DNA of 45,069 nt from a phage. The number at the start of each line of letters is the position of its first letter. Position 1 is the first letter of the stretch. The stretch lies in the sequence record PZ334583.1, one strand, 5' to 3'. Below the pieces are notes generated by a model, which was not told where the DNA came from, did not search any database, and was given only the letters and a program-made list of their open reading frames with translations. The translations under genes were made by a program, and so were the position numbers. Positions 3,591 to 14,181 of this stretch are shown here, piece after piece.

Positions 3591-3669
3591 ATAAGATAGC
3601 GCCGTTCTTTTGAGCGGCCTATTACTAGCCAATCTTCATAGGGAGGGTTGGAAAGTAATAGGAGATAGT

Positions 3670-5568
3670 ATGGCTAAATTAACCAAACCTAATACTGAAG
3701 GAATCTTGCATAAAGGACAATCTTTGTATGAGTACCTTGATGCGAGAGTTTTAACATCAAAGCCGTTTGGTGCTGCAGGTGACGCCACTACTGATGATAC
3801 GGAGGTTATAGCTGCTTCATTAAACTCTCAGAAAGCTGTCACAGTCTCAGATGGTGTATTCTCTAGCTCTGGTATTAATAGTAATTACTGTAACTTAGAC
3901 GGTAGGGGTAGTGGCGTGCTAAGTCACCGTTCCAGTACAGGTAACTACTTAGTATTTAACAATCTACGTGCAGGTCGCTTAAGTAATATTACGGTAGAAA
4001 GTAATAAGGCGACTGATACAACTCAGGGACAGCAGGTATCTCTTGCTGGTGGAAGTGATGTTACTATAAGTGACGTTAACTTCTCAAACGTTAAAGGTAC
4101 TGGTTTCAGTTTAATAGCATGCCCTAATGGTGAGCAACCTAACGGGCTTATGATTAAAGGCATTCGAGGTAGCTACTCCGGCTATGCTACTAATAAGGCC
4201 GCTGGATGCGTACTTGCTGACTCCTCAGTTAACTCTCTCATAGATAACGTCATTGCTAAGAGCTATCCTCAGTTTGGAGCTGTAGAGCTGAAAGGTACAG
4301 CCAGTTATAACATAGTAAGTAATGTTATAGGGGCAGATTGCCAACATGTAACTTACAACGGCACTGAAGAGGTAATAGCTCCTTCTAATAACCTTATCAA
4401 GGGTGTGATGGCTAATAATCCTAAGTATGCAGCGGTTGTTGCAGGCAAAGGAAGTACGAACTTAATCTCAGACGTGCTCGTAGATTACTCAACTTCTGAT
4501 GCTAGGCAGGCTCATGGTGTTACCGTAGAAGGGTCTGATAACGTCATAAATAATGTTCTTATGTCAGGATGTGATGGTACTAACTCTTTAGGACAAAGGC
4601 AGACTGCTACAATTGCACGCTTTATAGGTACAGCTAATAACAACTATGCGTCTGTATTTCCTAGCTACAGTGCTACAGGTGTTATTACTTTCGAATCCGG
4701 CTCTACCCGTAACTTCGTAGAGGTAAAGCACCCTGGCAGGAGAAATGACCTTCTCAGTTCTGCTAGTACTATTGACGGTGAAGCTACTATTGACGGCACT
4801 AATAATAGTAACGTAGTGCACGCACCCGCCTTAGGGCAGTACATAGGTAGTATGTCAGGTAGGTTCGAATGGCGGATTAAGTCCATGTCACTACCTTCAG
4901 GCGTTCTTACTTCGGCTGATAAGTACAGAATGCTTGGGGATGGTGCTGTGTCATTCGCTGTAGGTGGGGGCACTTCTTCTCAAGTTCGCCTATTTACTTC
5001 TGATGGTACTTCTCGGACAGTGTCCCTCACCAACGGTAACGTGCGTCTTTCTACCAGTAGCACAGGATATTTGCAGTTAGGTTCTGATGCAATGACCCCA
5101 GATAGTACTGGTACATACGCATTAGGTTCCGCCAGTAGAGCATGGTCTGGCGGTTTTACTCAATCAGCATTCACTGTTGTCTCAGATGCTAGGGATAAAA
5201 CAGAGCCCCTTATTATCTCAGATGCTTTACTGGATGCTTGGTCTGAAGTTGACTTTGTGCAGTTTCAGTACTTGGACCGAATTGAGGAGAAGGGTGCAGA
5301 CTCAGCTAGATGGCACTTCGGTATCATCGCTCAGCGAGCTAAGGAGGCTTTCGAACGTCACGGTATAGATGCACACCGCTACGGCTTCTTGTGCTTCGAC
5401 AGTTGGGATGATGTATACGAGGAAGATGCCAATGGCTCTCGTAAACTGATTACACCAGCAGGTTCCCGCTACGGTATTCGTTACGAGGAAGTACTGATAT
5501 TAGAGGCTGCATTGATGCGACGGACTATTAAGCGTATGCAGGAAGCACTAGCTGCCATTCCTAAGTAA
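3670..5568 (+). CDS. Tailspike 1: beta-helix capsule depolymerase-like with C-terminal intramolecular chaperone (peptidase S74) domain
   Basis: ATG 3670 (MAKLTKPNTEG...) with RBS GGAG; Ser/Thr/Gly/Asn-rich repetitive body typical of a beta-helix; C-terminus VSDARDKTEP...WHFGIIAQ...GIRYEEV matches the auto-cleaving chaperone domain of endosialidase and K5-lyase tailspikes. Confidence 0.9.
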   Translation: MAKLTKPNTEGILHKGQSLYEYLDARVLTSKPFGAAGDATTDDTEVIAASLNSQKAVTVSDGVFSSSGINSNYCNLDGRGSGVLSHRSSTGNYLVFNNLRAGRLSNITVESNKATDTTQGQQVSLAGGSDVTISDVNFSNVKGTGFSLIACPNGEQPNGLMIKGIRGSYSGYATNKAAGCVLADSSVNSLIDNVIAKSYPQFGAVELKGTASYNIVSNVIGADCQHVTYNGTEEVIAPSNNLIKGVMANNPKYAAVVAGKGSTNLISDVLVDYSTSDARQAHGVTVEGSDNVINNVLMSGCDGTNSLGQRQTATIARFIGTANNNYASVFPSYSATGVITFESGSTRNFVEVKHPGRRNDLLSSASTIDGEATIDGTNNSNVVHAPALGQYIGSMSGRFEWRIKSMSLPSGVLTSADKYRMLGDGAVSFAVGGGTSSQVRLFTSDGTSRTVSLTNGNVRLSTSSTGYLQLGSDAMTPDSTGTYALGSASRAWSGGFTQSAFTVVSDARDKTEPLIISDALLDAWSEVDFVQFQYLDRIEEKGADSARWHFGIIAQRAKEAFERHGIDAHRYGFLCFDSWDDVYEEDANGSRKLITPAGSRYGIRYEEVLILEAALMRRTIKRMQEALAAIPK

Positions 5569-7976: not shown

Positions 7977-8020
7977 CTTAGTGTACACAAGGGCAGACCT
8001 AGGTTTGCTCTTAGTGTATT
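7977..8020. repeat. Right-flank array of CTTAGTG heptamer repeats (SRR-like)
   Basis: cttagtgtacacaagg...ctcttagtgtatttac; same heptamer family as the 8320..8920 array. Confidence 0.5.
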
Positions 8021-8034
8021 TACAATGGAGGTCT

Positions 8035-8050
8035 TATATATATATATATA
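8035..8050. repeat. (TA)8 dinucleotide repeat
   Basis: tatatatatatatata read directly. Confidence 0.9.
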
Positions 8051-8147
8051 CCTATGGAAGCAATAGTAAGTTGCCTATGCTTGTTGATAGGTTTCGTTAT
8101 AGGCTTAATAGTAAATCCTTAGTCCTGTACAAGGGTTAACCAAAGTC

Positions 8148-8162
8148 AAAAAAAAAAAAAAA
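8148..8162. repeat. A15 homopolymer
   Basis: 15 consecutive A read directly, followed by a GC-rich block ctcgccctcgccctcgcc. Confidence 0.9.
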
Positions 8163-8319
8163 TTTGATGTAGGCGTGTGTCAGCTCTCTCGCCCTCGCCC
8201 TCGCCGGGTTGCCCCCATAGGGTGGCCTGAGGGAATCCGTCTTCGACGGGCAGGGCTGATGTGCTCCTTGGATAGTACAAGGGAGGCGGAGGGAACGCCT
8301 AGGGAGGCCTAGGAATGGC

Positions 8320-8920
8320 TTAGTGGTGGACAAGGTGATTGCCTTAGTGAAGCCTCTTAGTGCATTCCTGAGGCCATTCAGGGCGTTTATGAGGTATTGA
8401 CAAGATGGAGGGGGGCGTGGGCTATCTGTTCGTTTCGTTCACTCCGCTTGCGCTACGTTCACTCGCTCACGTGTACCTTAGGCTATTCCTTTATGGATAG
8501 CTTAGGTTATAGCTTAGTGGCCTACCTTAGTTATAACCTTAGTGCATAGCTTAGTATCAGCTTAGTAGTGTACCTTAGTAAGTCTTAGTGTCTTCTCTTA
8601 GTGATTGCACATGCAAGCATGTAAGATGCCATTAGGTCGCGGTCGGTAGACCGCTAAAGAAGGAGAATAGTAATAAGATGCAGTAGGAGGAACACCAGAA
8701 GCCTAGCCAACCTAAGCTATCCTAGCTCTATATCTATTGCTTTTCCTTAGTCTAACACGTTAGACAACCTATCTTTTTCTTAGTGATGGTAACTTAGTGT
8801 TGACAAGATAATCTTAGTGTAATACTATGCATCACGTAGGCGGTGCTGAGGCACCTAGTAGCCAGCTAGTAAGGCATACGAAGAGACTAGCGCTTACATT
8901 GCTCTTTAACAATTTGCTTA
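8320..8920. repeat. Left-flank array of about 20 dispersed CTTAGTG / AGCTTAGT heptamer repeats (SRL-like), interspersed with host-type promoters
   Basis: ggcttagtgg, gccttagtga, cctcttagtg, tagcttaggttatagcttagtggcctaccttagttataaccttagtgcatagcttagtatcagcttagtagtgtaccttagtaagtcttagtgtcttctcttagtg, and further copies at 8780..8920. Confidence 0.7.
8800..8828 (+). promoter_or_regulatory. Candidate host sigma70 early promoter
   Basis: TTGACA (8800..8805), 17-nt spacer, TACTAT (8823..8828); sits in the early leader as the T7 A promoters do. Confidence 0.4.
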
Positions 8921-8971
8921 GTGTAACCTATGTATGCCGTGGTTAACTACTTATTGAATGAGGTATTAACT

Positions 8972-9151
8972 ATGACATTAAACAACCGTGAACTGTCCGT
9001 TATCTTCACTCTGTTGTGCTACATGATTCGTAACAACGAATTACTTACAGACGATGAGTTAGCCTTGTATCACCGCTTTCTTAACGAAGGTTGGACCGAT
9101 ACAGTTAATCAATACCGTAACATGATAGATGAGTTGAGGGAGGGTAAATAA
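8972..9151 (+). CDS. Early hypothetical protein (59 aa)
   Basis: ATG 8972 with GAGG 8 nt upstream; ORF-track frame 8930..9151. Confidence 0.5.
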   Translation: MTLNNRELSVIFTLLCYMIRNNELLTDDELALYHRFLNEGWTDTVNQYRNMIDELREGK

Positions 9152-9375
9152 TGTATCAACATGAGGTATTCTTTGAATCAGCTAGCGAAGCTATTCGCTT
9201 CCGTGATGATATGATGCAAGCTGGCGTAGGTGTTGATGTGTATCACTATTTGATAGATTACGACACTGAATATCACCGAGTTACCTTAGTGACTGAGTAT
9301 GATAACCAAGTCATCACTGAGTACTTAGGCAGTGAAGATTACGATTACGATGAAGTAATCACGACAAATCTCTAA
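9151..9375 (+). CDS. Early small highly acidic protein (74 aa), possible DNA-mimic-type anti-host factor
   Basis: RBS GGGAGGG; Asp/Glu/Tyr-rich (EYDNQVITEYLGSEDYDYDEV); TAATG overlap with the upstream gene. Confidence 0.6.
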   Translation: MYQHEVFFESASEAIRFRDDMMQAGVGVDVYHYLIDYDTEYHRVTLVTEYDNQVITEYLGSEDYDYDEVITTNL

Positions 9376-9383
9376 ATTAACTG

Positions 9384-9412
9384 TTGACAGCCACGGCATA
9401 CAAGGTTACATT
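9384..9412 (+). promoter_or_regulatory. Candidate host sigma70 early promoter
   Basis: TTGACA (9384..9389), 17-nt spacer, TACATT (9407..9412). Confidence 0.35.
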
Positions 9413-9504
9413 AAGCATCAAGACGGCGACGTCTTTAAACATCCCGCTCTTTAACAATATGGTTTGTGTCTTGATAGGCTAACTAACTAACTAAGGTAAT
9501 TATC

Positions 9505-9615
9505 ATGAAAGGTTTAATTTGTGTAGAACGTATGGTCAATGGTAAAATTGAAATATTACCACTGGAAAACCAATCTAGCTTCAAAGAGTGGTATGGCTGT
9601 TTCTCACTGATTTAA
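9505..9615 (+). CDS. Small early ORF (36 aa)
   Basis: ATG 9505 after a (CTAA)n three-frame stop element and AAGG; MKGLICVERMVNGKIEILPLENQSSFKEWYGCFSLI. Confidence 0.3.
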   Translation: MKGLICVERMVNGKIEILPLENQSSFKEWYGCFSLI

Positions 9616-9766
9616 GGCAAAGGCTGGCACTAGTCAGCCTATCAAGGCGCAAACCAAGCTCTTTAACAATTTGGATGGCAGCTTCTTAGTCTGGATAGGT
9701 TAAACCTAGGGGATTCTCTTGAGTCTCCTATAATGTAACCTAACTAACTAAATGAGGATTAATAAC

Positions 9767-10123
9767 ATGGCTATGTCTAATATGACTTACTCTCAGGTTT
9801 ACAACACCGCTCATGCTGCATTAGTTGAACGTATCTGGAATGATGCTATTGATTGTATTGATAACGCACATGATGCAATCCATGATGCGGCGGATAGTGC
9901 TGTACCAATCTATTATGCTGACATCTTCTCCGTGATGGCGAGTGAAGGAATTGATCATTTCTTCGAAGACTCCGACCTGATGCCAGACACTAAGGATGTA
10001 ACGGTAGTATTGCAAGCCCGTATCTATGAGCAACTCACAATTGATCTATGGGAACGTGTTCAGTATATGATTGTTGAATACATCAACTCCGCCGCATATT
10101 TAGAAGAAAAAGAGGAAGAATAA
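9767..10123 (+). CDS. ocr: Ocr-like DNA-mimic anti-restriction protein (T7 gene 0.3 homolog)
   Basis: MAMSNMTY...[29 protein letters not shown]...[13 protein letters not shown]...[15 protein letters not shown]...EEKEEE closely matches the T7 Ocr sequence as I recall it; acidic; early-region position. Confidence 0.85.
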
Positions 10124-10124
10124 G

Positions 10125-10238
10125 ATGGAAAAGTTATACAACTTTATCTTTTCAGACGGTGTAACCCTGAAGTGTTCCCTACGACTCGCACAAATTCGTG
10201 AGGAAGTACTAGGCACTACATACAAACTATTTAGCTGA
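10125..10238 (+). CDS. Small early ORF (37 aa)
   Basis: ATG 10125 directly after the ocr stop, RBS GAGGAAG; MEKLYNFIFSDGVTLKCSLRLAQIREEVLGTTYKLFS. Confidence 0.35.
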   Translation: MEKLYNFIFSDGVTLKCSLRLAQIREEVLGTTYKLFS

Positions 10239-10251
10239 CACTATAAGAGAA
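10229..10251 (+). promoter_or_regulatory. Variant phage promoter-like sequence (the +1 G is replaced by A)
   Basis: atttagctgacactataagagaa; the -17..-1 region is closer to the SP6 consensus than the main family, but the CTATAG initiation box reads CTATAA. Confidence 0.35.
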
Positions 10252-10314
10252 GGCTTAACAAGGCGTTGCTACGGTAGCGCCTGATTAAACTTTCACTTAC
10301 TAGGAGTTAAGACT

Positions 10315-10542
10315 ATGGATTTAGATAGCATCATTATGGCATTTGCTCTTATTGGCTTAAGCTGGTGCTCCTATCACCTTTACCGTGAGTTCTTATTTGA
10401 TAAAGCTAAACGCAAACTAAGAAAGGAAGGCGGTAATTACCTTTGTGTAAGAGGTGGGCTTGTAGAATACATTGCACCTAACGGCACGGAATGCGCCATT
10501 AGCAAAGATGCATTTATAGAAACGTGGCATTACATCAAGTAA
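10315..10542 (+). CDS. Early small membrane protein (75 aa)
   Basis: RBS AGGAG; N-terminal hydrophobic helix IIMAFALIGLSWCSYHLY. Confidence 0.55.
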   Translation: MDLDSIIMAFALIGLSWCSYHLYREFLFDKAKRKLRKEGGNYLCVRGGLVEYIAPNGTECAISKDAFIETWHYIK

Positions 10543-10605
10543 CTAGCCTATAGCCTACCTGAGTGGGCTATGTGATATTTACTTACACTATATAAGGTGA
10601 CTATT

Positions 10606-11490
10606 ATGACTACTGAAAACATCCTCCTGTCTGTCCGTGAAGCTGCAACCGCTGAGATTAAGCAGCATTTGGATAATATCGGCACTTCTTACATCAAAGT
10701 TGGCGCTTGTCTGAATGAATTACGCGGTGATTTCGAAGGTCAAAAAGACTTTTTAGCTTATGTAGAATCAGAGTTCGGCATCAAGAAAGCACAATGCTAC
10801 AAGCTGATGAGTGTAGCCCGTGTCTTTGAAGGAGACGAACGCTTTAAAGGTGTGGCTATGCGTGTAATGCTGGCGCTTGTTCCTTTCGCTGATGAAAATA
10901 TAATCATGGAGAAGGCAGCAGAACTCGCCGCAGATGGCAAGCTGGACACTAACGCCGTAAACGCCCTGATTGATCCTAAGAAAGAGACAAAGGCCGAGAT
11001 GGTACAATCTAAGGCTGAGGCGGTAAAACCGCAGGAGAACGCGACTGAGTCCGCAGAATTACAGGAAATGCAAGCGCCGCAGGTAGTGCCACCCGCGAGC
11101 GAGCAGGAGGCCGACGAATCAGCACCTTGGGAAGAGGAAAGCAAGCCGGAAGCGCCTAAGGCCGCGCCACTGGATAACACGGCTAACACCGAGAGTGCCG
11201 CTATTGCTGGCCTTCTGGCACAAATTAAAGCACTGACCGAGCAATTACAGGCAGCTAATGACCGCATTGCCTCCTTAAGCAGCGCACGCGAAAGCAAGAA
11301 AGCAGCCGCGCCTATGCTGCCGCAATTCAAATCTTCCTGCTTCTATGCTCGCTTAGGTTTAAGCGCTGAGGAGGCAACGAAGAAAACAGCAGTTAACAAG
11401 GCACGCCGCGAACTGGTTAAGCTAGGCTACGGCGAAGGCCATGAAGCATGGCCCTTAATCTCTGAGGCAGTAGAAGAATTAACTAAGTAA
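10606..11490 (+). CDS. Early protein (294 aa): N-terminal helical domain, acidic Ala/Pro/Glu-rich linker, basic C-terminal region
   Basis: ATG 10606 with AAGG RBS; low-complexity centre (PQVVPPASEQEADESAPWEEESKPEAPKAAP); immediately upstream of the RNAP gene. Confidence 0.7.
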   Translation: MTTENILLSVREAATAEIKQHLDNIGTSYIKVGACLNELRGDFEGQKDFLAYVESEFGIKKAQCYKLMSVARVFEGDERFKGVAMRVMLALVPFADENIIMEKAAELAADGKLDTNAVNALIDPKKETKAEMVQSKAEAVKPQENATESAELQEMQAPQVVPPASEQEADESAPWEEESKPEAPKAAPLDNTANTESAAIAGLLAQIKALTEQLQAANDRIASLSSARESKKAAAPMLPQFKSSCFYARLGLSAEEATKKTAVNKARRELVKLGYGEGHEAWPLISEAVEELTK

Positions 11491-11553
11491 CCTTATCGGT
11501 GGCATCTTCTTAGTTGTCACCTATTAAGGTTTCTTTCACTAGGAGTAAACAAG

Positions 11554-14181
11554 ATGCAAGACCTACACGCTATTCAACTTCAACTTGAAGAAGAAATGTT
11601 TAACGGCGGTATCCGTCGCTTTGAAGCGGACCAACAACGCCAGATTGCATCCGGTAATGAATCAGACACGGCATGGAATCGCCGCTTATTATCCGAGTTA
11701 ATCGCGCCAATGGCTGAAGGTATTCAGGCTTATAAGGAAGAGTACGAAGGCAAGCGCGGTCGTGCACCACGTGCATTGGCTTTCATTAACTGCGTAGAAA
11801 ATGAAGTGGCAGCGTATATCACGATGAAGATCGTAATGGATATGCTTAACACTGATGTAACCTTGCAAGCTATCGCTATGAATGTAGCTGACCGCATCGA
11901 AGACCAAGTGCGCTTCAGTAAACTAGAAGGCCATGCAGCTAAATATTTTGAGAAGGTCAAGAAGTCACTTAAGGCAAGTAAGACTAAATCATATCGCCAT
12001 GCGCACAACGTAGCGGTCGTGGCTGAGAAGTCAGTAGCTGACCGTGACGCTGATTTCTCTCGCTGGGAAGCGTGGCCTAAAGATACCTTGCTACAAATTG
12101 GTATGACCTTGCTAGAAATACTGGAAAATAGTGTATTCTTCAACAGGCAGCCTGTTTTCATCCGCACCTTGCGTACTAATGGCGGCAAACACGGTGTTTA
12201 CTACTTACAGACTAGTGAACACGTTGGCGAGTGGATAACCGCCTTCAAAGAGCACGTAGCGCAACTAAGCCCTGCATATGCACCTTGCGTTATTCCTCCG
12301 CGTCCGTGGGTTTCACCTTTCAACGGTGGGTTTCATACTGAGAAAGTAGCAAGTCGTATCCGCCTTGTTAAAGGCAACCGTGAGCACGTCCGTAAGTTAA
12401 CTAAAAAGCAAATGCCAGCGGTCTATAAGGCTGTTAACGCCTTACAAGCTACTAAGTGGCAGGTTAACAAGGAAGTATTGCAGGTAGTAGAAGATGTTAT
12501 TCGTCTAGACCTCGGTTATGGTGTACCTTCCTTTAAGCCGCTCATTGACCGCGAGAACAAACCAGCTAACCCTGTTCCTCTTGAGTTCCAACACCTGCGA
12601 GGCCGTGAACTGAAAGAAATGCTTACGCCGGAACAATGGCAAGCCTTTATCAACTGGAAAGGTGAATGTACTAAGCTGTACACCGCTGAAACTAAGCGCG
12701 GAAGCAAATCGGCGGCAACCGTTCGCATGGTTGGTCAGGCCCGTAAATATAGCCAGTTCGACGCAATCTACTTCGTGTATGCACTGGACAGCCGCAGCCG
12801 CGTCTACGCGCAATCTAGCACACTCTCACCGCAATCAAATGACTTGGGCAAGGCATTGCTCCGTTTTACCGAAGGGCAGCGTCTTGATAGCGCTGAGGCG
12901 CTTAAGTGGTTTTTGGTGAACGGGGCGAATAACTGGGGTTGGGATAAGAAAACTTTTGACGTGCGCACCGCTAACGTGCTGGATAGCGAATTTCAAGACA
13001 TGTGCCGCGACATTGCAGCCGATCCGCTGACCTTCACTCAATGGGTAAATGCTGATTCCCCTTACGGCTTCCTTGCATGGTGCTTTGAATATGCGCGTTA
13101 TCTGGATGCACTGGATGAAGGCACGCAAGACCAATTCATGACGCACCTACCCGTCCATCAAGACGGTAGTTGCTCTGGTATCCAGCACTATAGCGCGATG
13201 TTACGCGATGAAGTAGGTGCGAAAGCAGTAAACCTTAAGCCTTCTGACTCCCCTCAAGATATTTATGGCGCGGTTGCGCAGGTTGTTATCCAGAAGAATT
13301 ACGCCTACATGAATGCAGACGATGCAGAGACTTTCACATCTGGAAGCGTCACACTTACAGGTGCAGAACTGCGTAGCATGGCTAGTGCGTGGGATATGAT
13401 AGGAATCACTCGCGGCCTGACCAAAAAGCCCGTAATGACACTACCTTATGGCAGCACACGTCTAACCTGCCGTGAGTCAGTGATTGATTATATCGTTGAT
13501 TTAGAAGAAAAAGAGGCCCAACGGGCTATTGCGGAAGGGCGTACCGCCAATCCTGTACACCCTTTTGATAATGACCGTAAGGACAGCCTGACACCTAGCG
13601 CAGCTTATAACTATATGACAGCTTTAATCTGGCCTTCTATTTCGGAAGTGGTTAAAGCTCCTATAGTGGCAATGAAAATGATTCGTCAGCTTGCACGTTT
13701 CGCAGCTAAAAGGAATGAAGGCTTAGAGTACACCTTGCCTACTGGCTTCATCTTGCAACAAAAGATAATGGCGACAGATATGCTCCGCGTATCTACTTGC
13801 TTGATGGGCGAAATCAAGATGAGTCTACAGATTGAAACGGACGTAGTGGATGAAACGGCTATGATGGGCGCTGCTGCCCCTAACTTTGTGCACGGTCATG
13901 ATGCCAGTCACCTTATCTTAACGGTCTGCGACCTTGTTGATAAAGGGATTACATCTATCGCAGTAATTCATGATTCTTTTGGCACTCATGCAGGTCGTAC
14001 CGCAGACCTACGTGATAGTCTAAGGGCAGAAATGGTGAAGATGTATCAAGGCCATAACGCTCTGCAAAGCCTGTTAGATGAGCATGAAGAACGCTGGTTA
14101 GTAGACACCGGAATCCAAGTGCCAGAGCAAGGAGAGTTTGACCTTAACGAAATCTTAGTATCTGACTATTGCTTCGCATAA
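11554..14181 (+). CDS. Single-subunit DNA-dependent RNA polymerase (SP6/T7 family)
   Basis: 875 aa; [26 protein letters not shown]... and the catalytic C-terminus ...HDSFGTHA... recognised as SP6-type RNAP; RBS AGGAG. Confidence 0.97.

Follow-up and report, generated by a model that had tools for sequence, protein, structure and literature searches.

The window analysed here is a 45,069-nucleotide stretch of phage DNA (sequence record PZ334583.1), and its early region carries a series of small genes. Gene 1 (8972-9151) and gene 2 (9151-9375), matching phrog_9275 and phrog_6403, are followed by a 36-aa ORF (9505-9615) and by ocr (9767-10123), which codes for the anti-restriction DNA mimic (PF08684, E = 1.9e-40). 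The other six of the seven early proteins have no Pfam match. The 13-nt motif GCTCTTTAACAAT occurs exactly at 8901-8913, 9446-9458 and 9658-9670, here called boxA1, boxA2 and boxA3. All three copies are on the + strand, as are all features described below unless stated otherwise, and all are intergenic. A first-pass annotation had already reported them upstream of early genes, and we confirmed this, with 0.00 exact matches expected from 100 dinucleotide-preserving shuffles. Each copy precedes an early gene and none lies outside the early region; allowing two mismatches revealed no extra copy in the 45 kb. From the end of the motif to the start of the next gene there are 58 nt for boxA1 (gene 1 ATG, 8972), 46 nt for boxA2 (start of the ORF at 9505) and 96 nt for boxA3 (ocr ATG, 9767). 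ORFs that overlap the copies are mechanical, lack a ribosome-binding site or begin 5' of where the transcript is predicted to start. The phage, described as K1-5-like, appears to have its first genes packaged in modules imitating a ribosomal RNA operon.

By its sequence, the 13-mer is a host-type (rrn-type) boxA, the element on which NusB/NusE load to build the antitermination complex of rRNA operons. It equals the E. coli rrnB leader boxA without mismatch (L001, 317-329) and differs from the rrnB spacer boxA at one position. All three copies perfectly match the γ-proteobacterial boxA consensus, GYTCTTTAANA (PMC5725501), and the rrn sequence UGCUCUUUAACAA. The context downstream of boxA3, AATTTGGAT, resembles that of the rrnB spacer boxA, AATCTGGAT. 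NusB binds an rrn-type boxA far more tightly than the lambda nut boxA (130 nM versus 2200 nM; PMC2800207). In predicted folds the phage copies are essentially unpaired and lie outside the helices.

The main new result, missed in the first-pass annotation, is a pair of long-range helices, a and b. The 5' arm of helix a (8915-8944) starts 2 nt after boxA1, and its 3' arm (9389-9417) ends 28 nt upstream of boxA2. The helix has 29 bp and one bulge (15 bp, a 1-nt bulge at A8930, 14 bp), spans 503 nt and encloses genes 1 and 2 (8972-9375), the cargo of module a, whose composition differs among relatives. Across 15 distinct sequences 95.4% of the cells are paired, and 16 of 30 pairs have changed on both sides. 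None of 500 shuffles was as good, and slid arms were 25-37% paired. These figures come from anchored, trimmed arms, as whole-arm MAFFT alignments shifted some rows. The 3' arm coincides with the spacer, the -10 element and the first bases of a predicted promoter, P2, and the TTGAC just 5' of it is invariant in 19 sequences. Part of the conservation of this arm could be due to the promoter function.

Helix b is shorter, with 21-26 bp and a span of 197 nt, and is the longest inverted repeat within 1.5 kb separation in the whole window. Its 5' arm (9460-9485, made up of a core at 9460-9480 and an extension into CTAACTA) begins 2 nt past boxA2, and its 3' arm (9636-9656) ends 1 nt before boxA3. 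In 17 sequences 97.7% of the cells are paired, compared with 24-45% in slid controls, and 7 of 21 pairs have changed on both sides. Klebsiella phages have matching 2-nt deletions in the two arms. The RNAduplex energy of helix b is unexceptional (z = -2.35, 6th of 292 background arms); because this background is high (mean -31 kcal/mol), energy alone is a weak criterion and we relied on covariation instead. A small hairpin, GGCTG...CAGCC (9622-9639), lies just 5' of the 3' arm and overlaps it, and its stem is flipped in some relatives (GCTGGC-ACTA-GCCAGC versus GCCAGC-ATAA-GCTGGC). The cargo of module b, the 36-aa ORF, is unrelated to the ORFs in the same slot of other phages. Across phages the module holds at least 12 unrelated ORF families while the arms and boxA are kept, and the ATG always lies +55 to +60 from the boxA start. 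A second small hairpin, AAGACG-GCGA-CGTCTT (9420-9435), was read from the sequence 10 nt before boxA2, at the position of boxB in rrn. Found only in close relatives (Vectrevirus rows), it is a weak candidate for a boxB counterpart.

The changes in the arms of both helices carry the mark of RNA. G-U cells outnumber A-C cells by 55 to 16; this bias, together with the compensatory changes, points to + strand RNA rather than DNA sites. As + strand RNA the duplexes gain 4-5 kcal/mol in stability over their - strand versions. The script used here also finds the real 16S leader-trailer helix beside the rrnB boxA. In length (at least about 17-20 bp), covariation and location at the boxC position, helices a and b are like rrn leader-trailer helices, but unlike those rRNA-enclosing stems they surround protein-coding ORFs. 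An Rfam scan of 8300-11700 in E-value mode assigned no RNA family and returned chance-level matches only.

The third copy is arranged differently. No long-range partner was found for the sequence 3' of boxA3, which folds locally into hairpin c (9682-9757), a stem of some 29 bp broken by internal loops (MFE -33.1, z = -3.0). Together, boxA3 and hairpin c serve ocr. The ocr Shine-Dalgarno sequence GAGG (9754-9757) is paired at the base of the hairpin in the predicted fold. Covariation is seen in the apical helix (4 of 6 pairs) but not in the lower stem, which is conserved and whose structure is taken from energy prediction. RNAalifold on the ocr leaders recovered the apical helix only, with Salmonella and Klebsiella subtypes misaligned by MAFFT. 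Hairpin c is the one element of the type of the T7 local intergenic hairpins (about 20-30 bp with an internal loop) and, by analogy with R0.3 in T7, would be cut by RNase III. Folding of the RNA around each copy had been proposed as a check on the motif; two long-range helices and one local hairpin are predicted to adjoin it, while the motif itself is essentially unpaired in the folds.

Copies 2 and 3 are each followed by GATAGG and then CTAACTAACTAA, as noted earlier, and the idea of a duplicated 5' leader cassette is borne out. CTAACTAACTAA was found only at 9479-9494 and 9740-9751 (0.31 expected). The first occurrence is part of (CTAA)4, which is variable among relatives; its first part completes the 5' arm of helix b and the rest is a spacer before the Shine-Dalgarno AAGG (9492). 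The second is the 3' strand of hairpin c. These repeats had been taken for three-frame stops. That holds for the ocr leader, where such stops occur in 8 of 9 distinct lineages compared with 11% for a random 32-mer, but in the module b leader they occur in only 8 of 21, and we rejected them as a general feature. A role as one strand of the stems accounts for (CTAA)n better than a stop device does.

Two σ70 promoters are predicted in the early region. P1 (8800-8828; TTGACA-17-TACTAT, 10 of 12 consensus matches) lies 73 nt upstream of boxA1, with a predicted transcript start at about 8835, some 65 nt upstream of that boxA. P2 (9384-9412; TTGACA-17-TACATT) lies 34 nt upstream of boxA2, and its predicted start at about 9419 is directly past the helix a 3' arm. 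Scanning by consensus gave 7 sites, no excess over the 6.8 in shuffled sequence, and predicted no σ70 promoter ahead of boxA3. The annotations of Proteus phage Pm5460 and of K30 list a host promoter at the site equivalent to P1, and that of Pm5460 also lists one at the P2 homologue (1522-1551, with the arm at 1527-1557). Since P2 has its core in the helix a 3' arm, transcripts started at P2 could not form this helix. The leader between P1 and boxA1 has no significant structure; with a fold no better than shuffles (z = +0.29), an rrn-like boxB before boxA1 is unsupported. An antisense phage-promoter look-alike at 9729-9745 on the - strand was treated as chance, since it has two mismatches, a level at which 0.6 matches are expected by chance, and is not conserved in the Salmonella relatives.

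We also surveyed other phages for the motif, conservation in relatives having been named earlier as a check. It is kept in all relatives examined, invariably on the + strand and in the early region. K1-5 and K1E have three copies each, and SP6 has two plus one degenerate copy. The motif is also present in Proteus, Klebsiella, Pectobacterium, Cronobacter and Edwardsiella phages, in K30 and in T7. Module order varies: in SP6 module b comes before a, K1E has two b modules, and CrRp3 and L010 are without b. Helix b of Pectobacterium CB5 and Cronobacter Peggy is preceded by a boxA but not followed by one. Module b is present in three Autographiviridae subfamilies, and with distant genera the leader alone is conserved and nothing else.

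The T7 analogy drawn in the first-pass annotation was apt. An identical 13-mer stands in T7 at 813, with promoter A3 (750) on one side and gene 0.3 (925) on the other, directly upstream of the gene 0.3 leader hairpin R0.3. The order of boxA, local hairpin and ocr is the same in both phages, with hairpin c at the position of R0.3. According to Dunn and Studier, RNase III processing at R0.3 reportedly aids gene 0.3 translation. In T7 the motif is single and the hairpins are all local, whereas in the present phage gene-enclosing long-range helices adjoin two of the three copies and the module is reiterated with variable cargo.

Like the E. coli rrn operons (boxB-boxA-boxC), whose 16S and 23S leader-trailer helices are RNase III substrates, the phage has the identical boxA 13-mer and, within a few nucleotides of it, the beginning of the 5' arm of a product-enclosing long-range helix. 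The arm begins directly after boxA in rrnB and 2 nt after boxA1 and boxA2 in the phage. As in the rrn spacer, another boxA comes after the 3' arm. The phage 5' arm is GU-rich (UGUGU) like boxC, and the phage helices are longer than the 17 bp required in rrn (PMC10250234). The systems differ in that the phage helices surround 0.15-0.5 kb of translated mRNA rather than structural rRNA, that three modules fit within about 0.9 kb, that a boxB-like hairpin is absent or weak and that one 3' arm doubles as a promoter. As with lambda nut, a phage would be using boxA and host Nus factors for processive antitermination. The lambda boxA, however, is off consensus and binds NusB weakly (PMC2800207), whereas the phage copies are perfect rrn-type boxA sequences. 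Lambda also depends on the N protein and on a boxB hairpin to the 3' side of its boxA. In this phage a helix arm, and no hairpin of boxB form, lies 3' of each boxA. Pfam identified no analogue of N among the seven early proteins, ocr being the only match, and an unrecognised analogue is possible.

We consider it probable that the boxA-led modules, which are built like an rRNA gene, work by Nus-dependent antitermination, looping and RNase III cutting. At the sequence level, the layout of boxA, 5' arm, cargo, 3' arm and next boxA matches the rrn leader-trailer design; from it we infer the loading of Nus factors and SuhB, antitermination, looping and RNase III cleavage. In rrn operons boxA-tethered looping aids leader-trailer folding and RNase III processing (PMC4807359; PMC10250234; bioRxiv 2026.03.17.712431). 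In the phage, E. coli RNA polymerase starting from P1 or P2 would transcribe the early region, and NusB/NusE (S10) would bind the boxA RNA. NusA, NusG and SuhB would then join, making the polymerase fast, pause-resistant and Rho-resistant as on rRNA operons. With the boxA-bound complex remaining on the polymerase, the 5' arm would wait at the RNA exit for the 3' arm to emerge, and the two arms would close a helix of 21-30 bp round the cargo. RNase III would cut helices a and b and the local hairpin upstream of ocr, yielding separate mRNAs with paired and so stabilised ends. Cleavage would also free the ocr ribosome-binding site and sever the boxA tether; the loss of the tether may be why a fresh boxA follows each 3' arm. 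The enclosed phage RNA is translated, unlike rRNA, and ribosomes could disturb looping.

One alternative, which we regard as unlikely, is that the boxA copies are repressors or attenuators like the one in the suhB 5' UTR, where the Nus complex blocks translation and provokes Rho termination, and that they throttle or time the early genes. In suhB-type mRNAs a boxA near the start codon represses expression (PMC5725501). The phage copies are likewise consensus boxA sequences in mRNA leaders, tens of nucleotides from a start codon; boxA1 and boxA2 end 58 and 46 nt before theirs, close to the 50-nt limit used in finding such sites (PMC5725501). The predicted sequestration of the ocr Shine-Dalgarno sequence would also fit repression. 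Early genes of the T7 group need quick expression, however, and all three copies precede the RNA polymerase gene (11554). The suhB boxA is single, repressive and without an adjoining long-range helix, whereas the phage has reiterated boxA directly ahead of long-range helices, mirroring the rrn operons, where the effect is positive. That the module is kept while its cargo differs also speaks more for a general expression device than for gene-specific repression.

It is very unlikely that boxA and the arms are mainly DNA homology blocks for cassette swapping with no RNA function of their own. Unrelated cargo does lie between identical flanks in different phages, module order does differ among SP6, K1E, CrRp3 and L010, and only the leader is shared with distant genera. 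Homology blocks, however, have no need for complementarity, compensatory change, an excess of G-U over A-C or an exact match to a host boxA. As a secondary effect, recombination may well exploit the flanks.

The first-pass annotation had suggested, by analogy with T7 early mRNA processing, that the motif marks RNase III sites or is a control element. RNase III acts on double-stranded RNA. The motif does adjoin every predicted double-stranded element, and in T7 it is just upstream of the first RNase III site region. That the 13-mer is itself a recognition or cleavage mark is nevertheless extremely unlikely: the enzyme needs double-stranded RNA and boxA is single-stranded, with the double-stranded RNA next to it; the motif is identical to a sequence of different known function, the NusB/NusE site; and helix b of CB5 and Peggy has it on one side only. 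The other suggestion, that of a transcriptional control element, is very probably right. Equally improbable is a role of the inverted repeats as DNA sites, that is operators for a phage or host protein or convergent or divergent promoters, with helix a being promoter-like sequence in both orientations, for while its 3' arm is the P2 core, the 5' arm read as its reverse complement lacks an acceptable -35 and the scan called no - strand promoter at this site, helix b has no promoter, and the compensatory changes and G-U bias indicate + strand RNA.

Beyond modules built like an rRNA gene, we tentatively propose, as a possibility with somewhat less than an even chance of being right as a whole, that these are portable rRNA-operon mimics in SP6/K1-5-like phages and, via module b, in several other Autographiviridae genera. 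The perfect rrn boxA would recruit the complete host rrnTAC, with the Nus factors and SuhB, to mRNA transcription; this complex would chaperone helix closure round single small early genes, and RNase III would excise them as end-paired mRNAs. The conserved flanks would be handles for swapping cargo, which would probably be host-takeover or anti-defence genes. In the literature searched we found no paper linking boxA to SP6, K1-5, T7 or the Autographiviridae; an earlier mention of the boxA match, for instance in the SP6 genome paper or the SP6/K1-5 comparison paper, is possible.

RNA polymerase modified at boxA and RNase III leader-trailer helices are regarded as specialities of rRNA operons, and a use of boxA-tethered RNA looping elsewhere has been described as an open question (bioRxiv 2026.03.17.712431). 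Being natural, translated and of small size (module b measures about 200 nt), the phage modules offer a handy test of such looping. If the rRNA-operon mimicry is real, it would be the first example in nature of rrnTAC-driven RNA looping being put to use for protein-coding genes. The proposed mechanism, if true, would explain how the long untranslated early leaders are protected from Rho. It would also explain faster transcription and possibly, judging from T7 biology, transcription-driven genome entry. At least 12 unrelated small ORFs occupy the hypervariable early slot that the conserved flanks delimit, and the flanks thereby offer a route to new host-takeover or anti-defence genes.

Exact copies of the 13-mer GCTCTTTAACAAT stand at 8901, 9446 and 9658 (boxA1, boxA2 and boxA3), the intergenic positions given by the first-pass annotation, and all three are on the + strand. 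Exact matches in shuffled sequence came to 0.00, and a two-mismatch search of the window revealed no copy beyond the three. They precede the early start codons at 8972, 9505 and 9767 with gaps of 58, 46 and 96 nt from the motif end, and CTAACTAACTAA follows only the second and third copies (0.31 expected). Over all 13 nt it is identical to the boxA found in the rrnB leader of E. coli (L001, 317-329), and the boxA of the rrnB spacer has a single mismatch to it. It also satisfies GYTCTTTAANA, the boxA consensus worked out for gamma-proteobacteria (PMC5725501), which across the whole window is matched only at 8901, 9446 and 9658. BoxA is the RNA site for NusB/NusE and nucleates the rRNA antitermination complex (PMC10250234); the affinity of NusB for rrn boxA is far above that for lambda nut boxA (PMC2800207).

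The window is a permuted genome, and over the 2 kb around the boxA copies it shares 92-98% identity with the left ends of K1-5, K1E and further Vectrevirus genomes, members of the SP6 supergroup within the T7-like phages. From about 8400 the early region extends to the right, with small genes, ocr (9767-10123, + strand, Pfam PF08684) and then the phage RNA polymerase gene (11554-14181). Conservation in related phages had been suggested as a check, and every relative examined encodes one to three boxA copies, always on the + strand and in the early region. Three copies are present in each of K1-5 and K1E; SP6 has two, with a third that is degenerate. Two copies each were seen in Zindervirus BP12B, in the Klebsiella and Proteus phages and in K30. 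Pectobacterium CB5, Cronobacter Peggy and T7 have a single copy each, which in T7 sits at 813, with promoter A3 on one side and gene 0.3 on the other. None of the GenBank records examined annotates a boxA. Degenerate copies stand before SP6 ocr (GATCTTTAACAAT; L003, 1535-1547) and after the second K1E b module (GCTCTTTTAACAAT; L016, about 2238), where relatives have a perfect copy.

A repeat search found the sequence after boxA1 (8915-8942) complementary to that just before boxA2 (9391-9417), and the sequence right after boxA2 (9460-9485) complementary to that right before boxA3 (9631-9656). These helices, a and b, were confirmed by an RNAduplex scan (-49 and -42 kcal/mol, respectively), and, as a positive control, the script also picked up the genuine 16S leader-trailer helix that adjoins the boxA of rrnB. 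Among inverted repeats within 1.5 kb, helix b is the longest that the window contains, and RNA folding at boxA2, another proposed check, gave a minimum-energy fold of 9440-9675 closed by helix b. Since pairing energy alone was only moderately unusual (z = -3.8 for helix a and -2.35 for helix b; 292 background arms), we tested covariation using the arms of 26 helix a modules and 21 helix b modules of GenBank and IMG/VR phages, anchored and trimmed into alignments A3 (a) and A4 (b). Vectrevirus, Zindervirus, Acadevirus, Tuodvirus and Gansuvirus-like phages contributed the helix a arms; among those contributing helix b arms were phages of Pectobacterium, Cronobacter, Edwardsiella and Enterobacter, as well as K30 of the Studiervirinae. 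Among 15 distinct sequences for helix a and 17 for helix b, 95.4% and 97.7% of cells hold a standard pair, with 16 of 30 and 7 of 21 pairs changed on both sides. No shuffle scored as high (0 of 500 for each helix), and with the partner slid 1-3 columns only 25-37% (a) and 24-45% (b) were paired. The one-base bulge of helix a is conserved, and in Klebsiella phages helix b has matching two-base deletions in both arms. The helix alignments hold 55 G-U cells versus 16 A-C cells, and duplexes of the + strand exceed those of the - strand in stability, which argues that the pairing is selected in + strand RNA and not in DNA.

For the sequence after boxA3, the RNAduplex scan found no distant pairing partner. 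Folding there gave a local hairpin, hairpin c (9682-9757; -33 kcal/mol, z = -3.0), with CTAACTAACTAA contributing to its 3' strand and the Shine-Dalgarno of ocr, GAGG, paired at its base in the predicted fold. In the apical helix 4 of 6 pairs covary; the lower stem shows conservation without covariation. T7 shares the order boxA, hairpin, ocr, and its hairpin is the RNase III site R0.3. In the ocr leader AACCTAACTAACTAA is nearly invariant. Three-frame stops, which the first-pass annotation attributed to (CTAA)n, hold up in the ocr leader (8 of 9 lineages versus 11% of random 32-mers) but not in module b, the boxA2 and helix b unit (8 of 21), where the (CTAA)n segment is variable among phages. 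A structural role, as hairpin c 3' strand and where the 5' arm of helix b ends, is better supported, with insulation of ocr translation from upstream ribosomes possible in module c (boxA3, hairpin c and ocr). Read on the - strand, the 3' strand of hairpin c (9729-9745) resembles a phage promoter with two mismatches; Salmonella relatives do not conserve this likeness, which is probably due to chance.

Module b (9446-9657) consists of boxA, an arm, one small ORF, a hairpin and the other arm. In 21 of 21 phages its ATG lies 55-60 nt from the boxA start, and the single ORF, of 36-95 aa, falls into at least 12 unrelated families; the loci compared include L003, L012, L013, L015, L016, L041, L095, L123, L142, L144 and L145. 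The 36-aa ORF of the window (9505-9615) is unrelated to K1E gp2.8, which is held between the same flanks. Module a (boxA1 and helix a) usually encloses gene 1 and 2 homologues plus variable extras. Modules vary in number and order among phages, and in distant genera the module b leader is the only part of the stretch still detected by BLAST. With its fixed flanks, module b resembles an early gene slot of hypervariable content.

Could the flanks be purely recombinational junctions? Cassette exchange through them is probably real, as a secondary effect. We also considered the 13-mer itself as an RNase III mark, as the first-pass annotation had suggested, and the boxA copies as suhB-like repressors. 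None of these three readings, nor that of the repeats as DNA-level operators, the last opposed by selection in RNA, explains both the exact host boxA match and the covariation in the + strand.

Already known are boxA, Nus-dependent phage antitermination (lambda) and the cutting of early T7 transcripts by RNase III, and the T7 boxA match is presumably familiar to specialists. Reiterated boxA with covarying long-range helices around swappable protein-coding cargo was not found in the searchable literature or annotations. Temperate SfIV-like phages have the same rrn-type boxA just downstream of a CI-like repressor gene (L026, 1352-2100; L150, Shigella phage SfIV, about 3600-4350; and many IMG/VR loci, including L032, L036, L049 and L063). 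There, boxA is followed by an arm, ATCTGGTCCCC.../ATCTGGATATCC..., pairing with TTGTTGGGG...CCAG 450-740 nt downstream, and arm variants have changes on both arms. Loci L052 and L038 are more cases, and boxA with a long-range helix may be more general in phages.

Sigma-70 promoters are predicted by consensus match at 8800-8828 (P1) and 9384-9412 (P2), in a scan that overall was no richer than shuffled sequence. The P2 -35 is invariant in 19 sequences, and the site homologous to P2 in Proteus phage Pm5460 is an annotated host promoter. Because the helix a 3' arm forms the P2 spacer, -10 and start region, only P1 transcripts could form helix a; P2 transcripts are predicted to start just after that arm. 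SP6/K1-5-type phage RNA polymerase promoters, ATTTAC[T/C]GGACACTATA, lie at 10229-10245 and 12 more + strand sites, further sites including 3568, 14274, 17072, 21465, 26300 and 31632. The first is just after gene 4, so host-polymerase-only transcription would span 8835 to about 10230. Palindrome GTCTCACATGTGAGAC lies beside phage promoters (14249-14271, 14437-14459, 17133-17174). Directly after the first promoter, a very stable hairpin at 10236-10310 (-31 kcal/mol, z = -5.8) overlaps part of the gene 5 RBS and is a candidate processing or stabilising element. CTTAGTR has 37 copies in the window versus 16 expected; the stretch 7977-8923 holds 15 + strand copies in non-coding left-end DNA and a 16th (8917) with which the helix a 5' arm opens. 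Two sequences, AATTAACTAAGTAA and GGCATCTTCTTAGT (repeat families D3 and D12), are found both in the ocr leader and in that of the RNA polymerase gene (11477-11514); the latter contains no boxA.

In rrn operons the boxA-bound Nus/SuhB complex stays on the polymerase, with faster elongation and Rho resistance. The phage layout reproduces their cis elements three times in 0.9 kb, a fresh boxA following each 3' arm, and on this likeness we propose that, in transcribing the phage early region, host polymerase would be converted to an rrn-type complex. By analogy, from Nus loading onward, this complex would help helices a and b to close around their cargo, and RNase III would cut helix a, helix b and hairpin c. 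A terminator-like hairpin with a T-run lies at 10549-10572, between genes 5 and 6 and upstream of the RNA polymerase gene; getting past it might take an antitermination-modified host polymerase.
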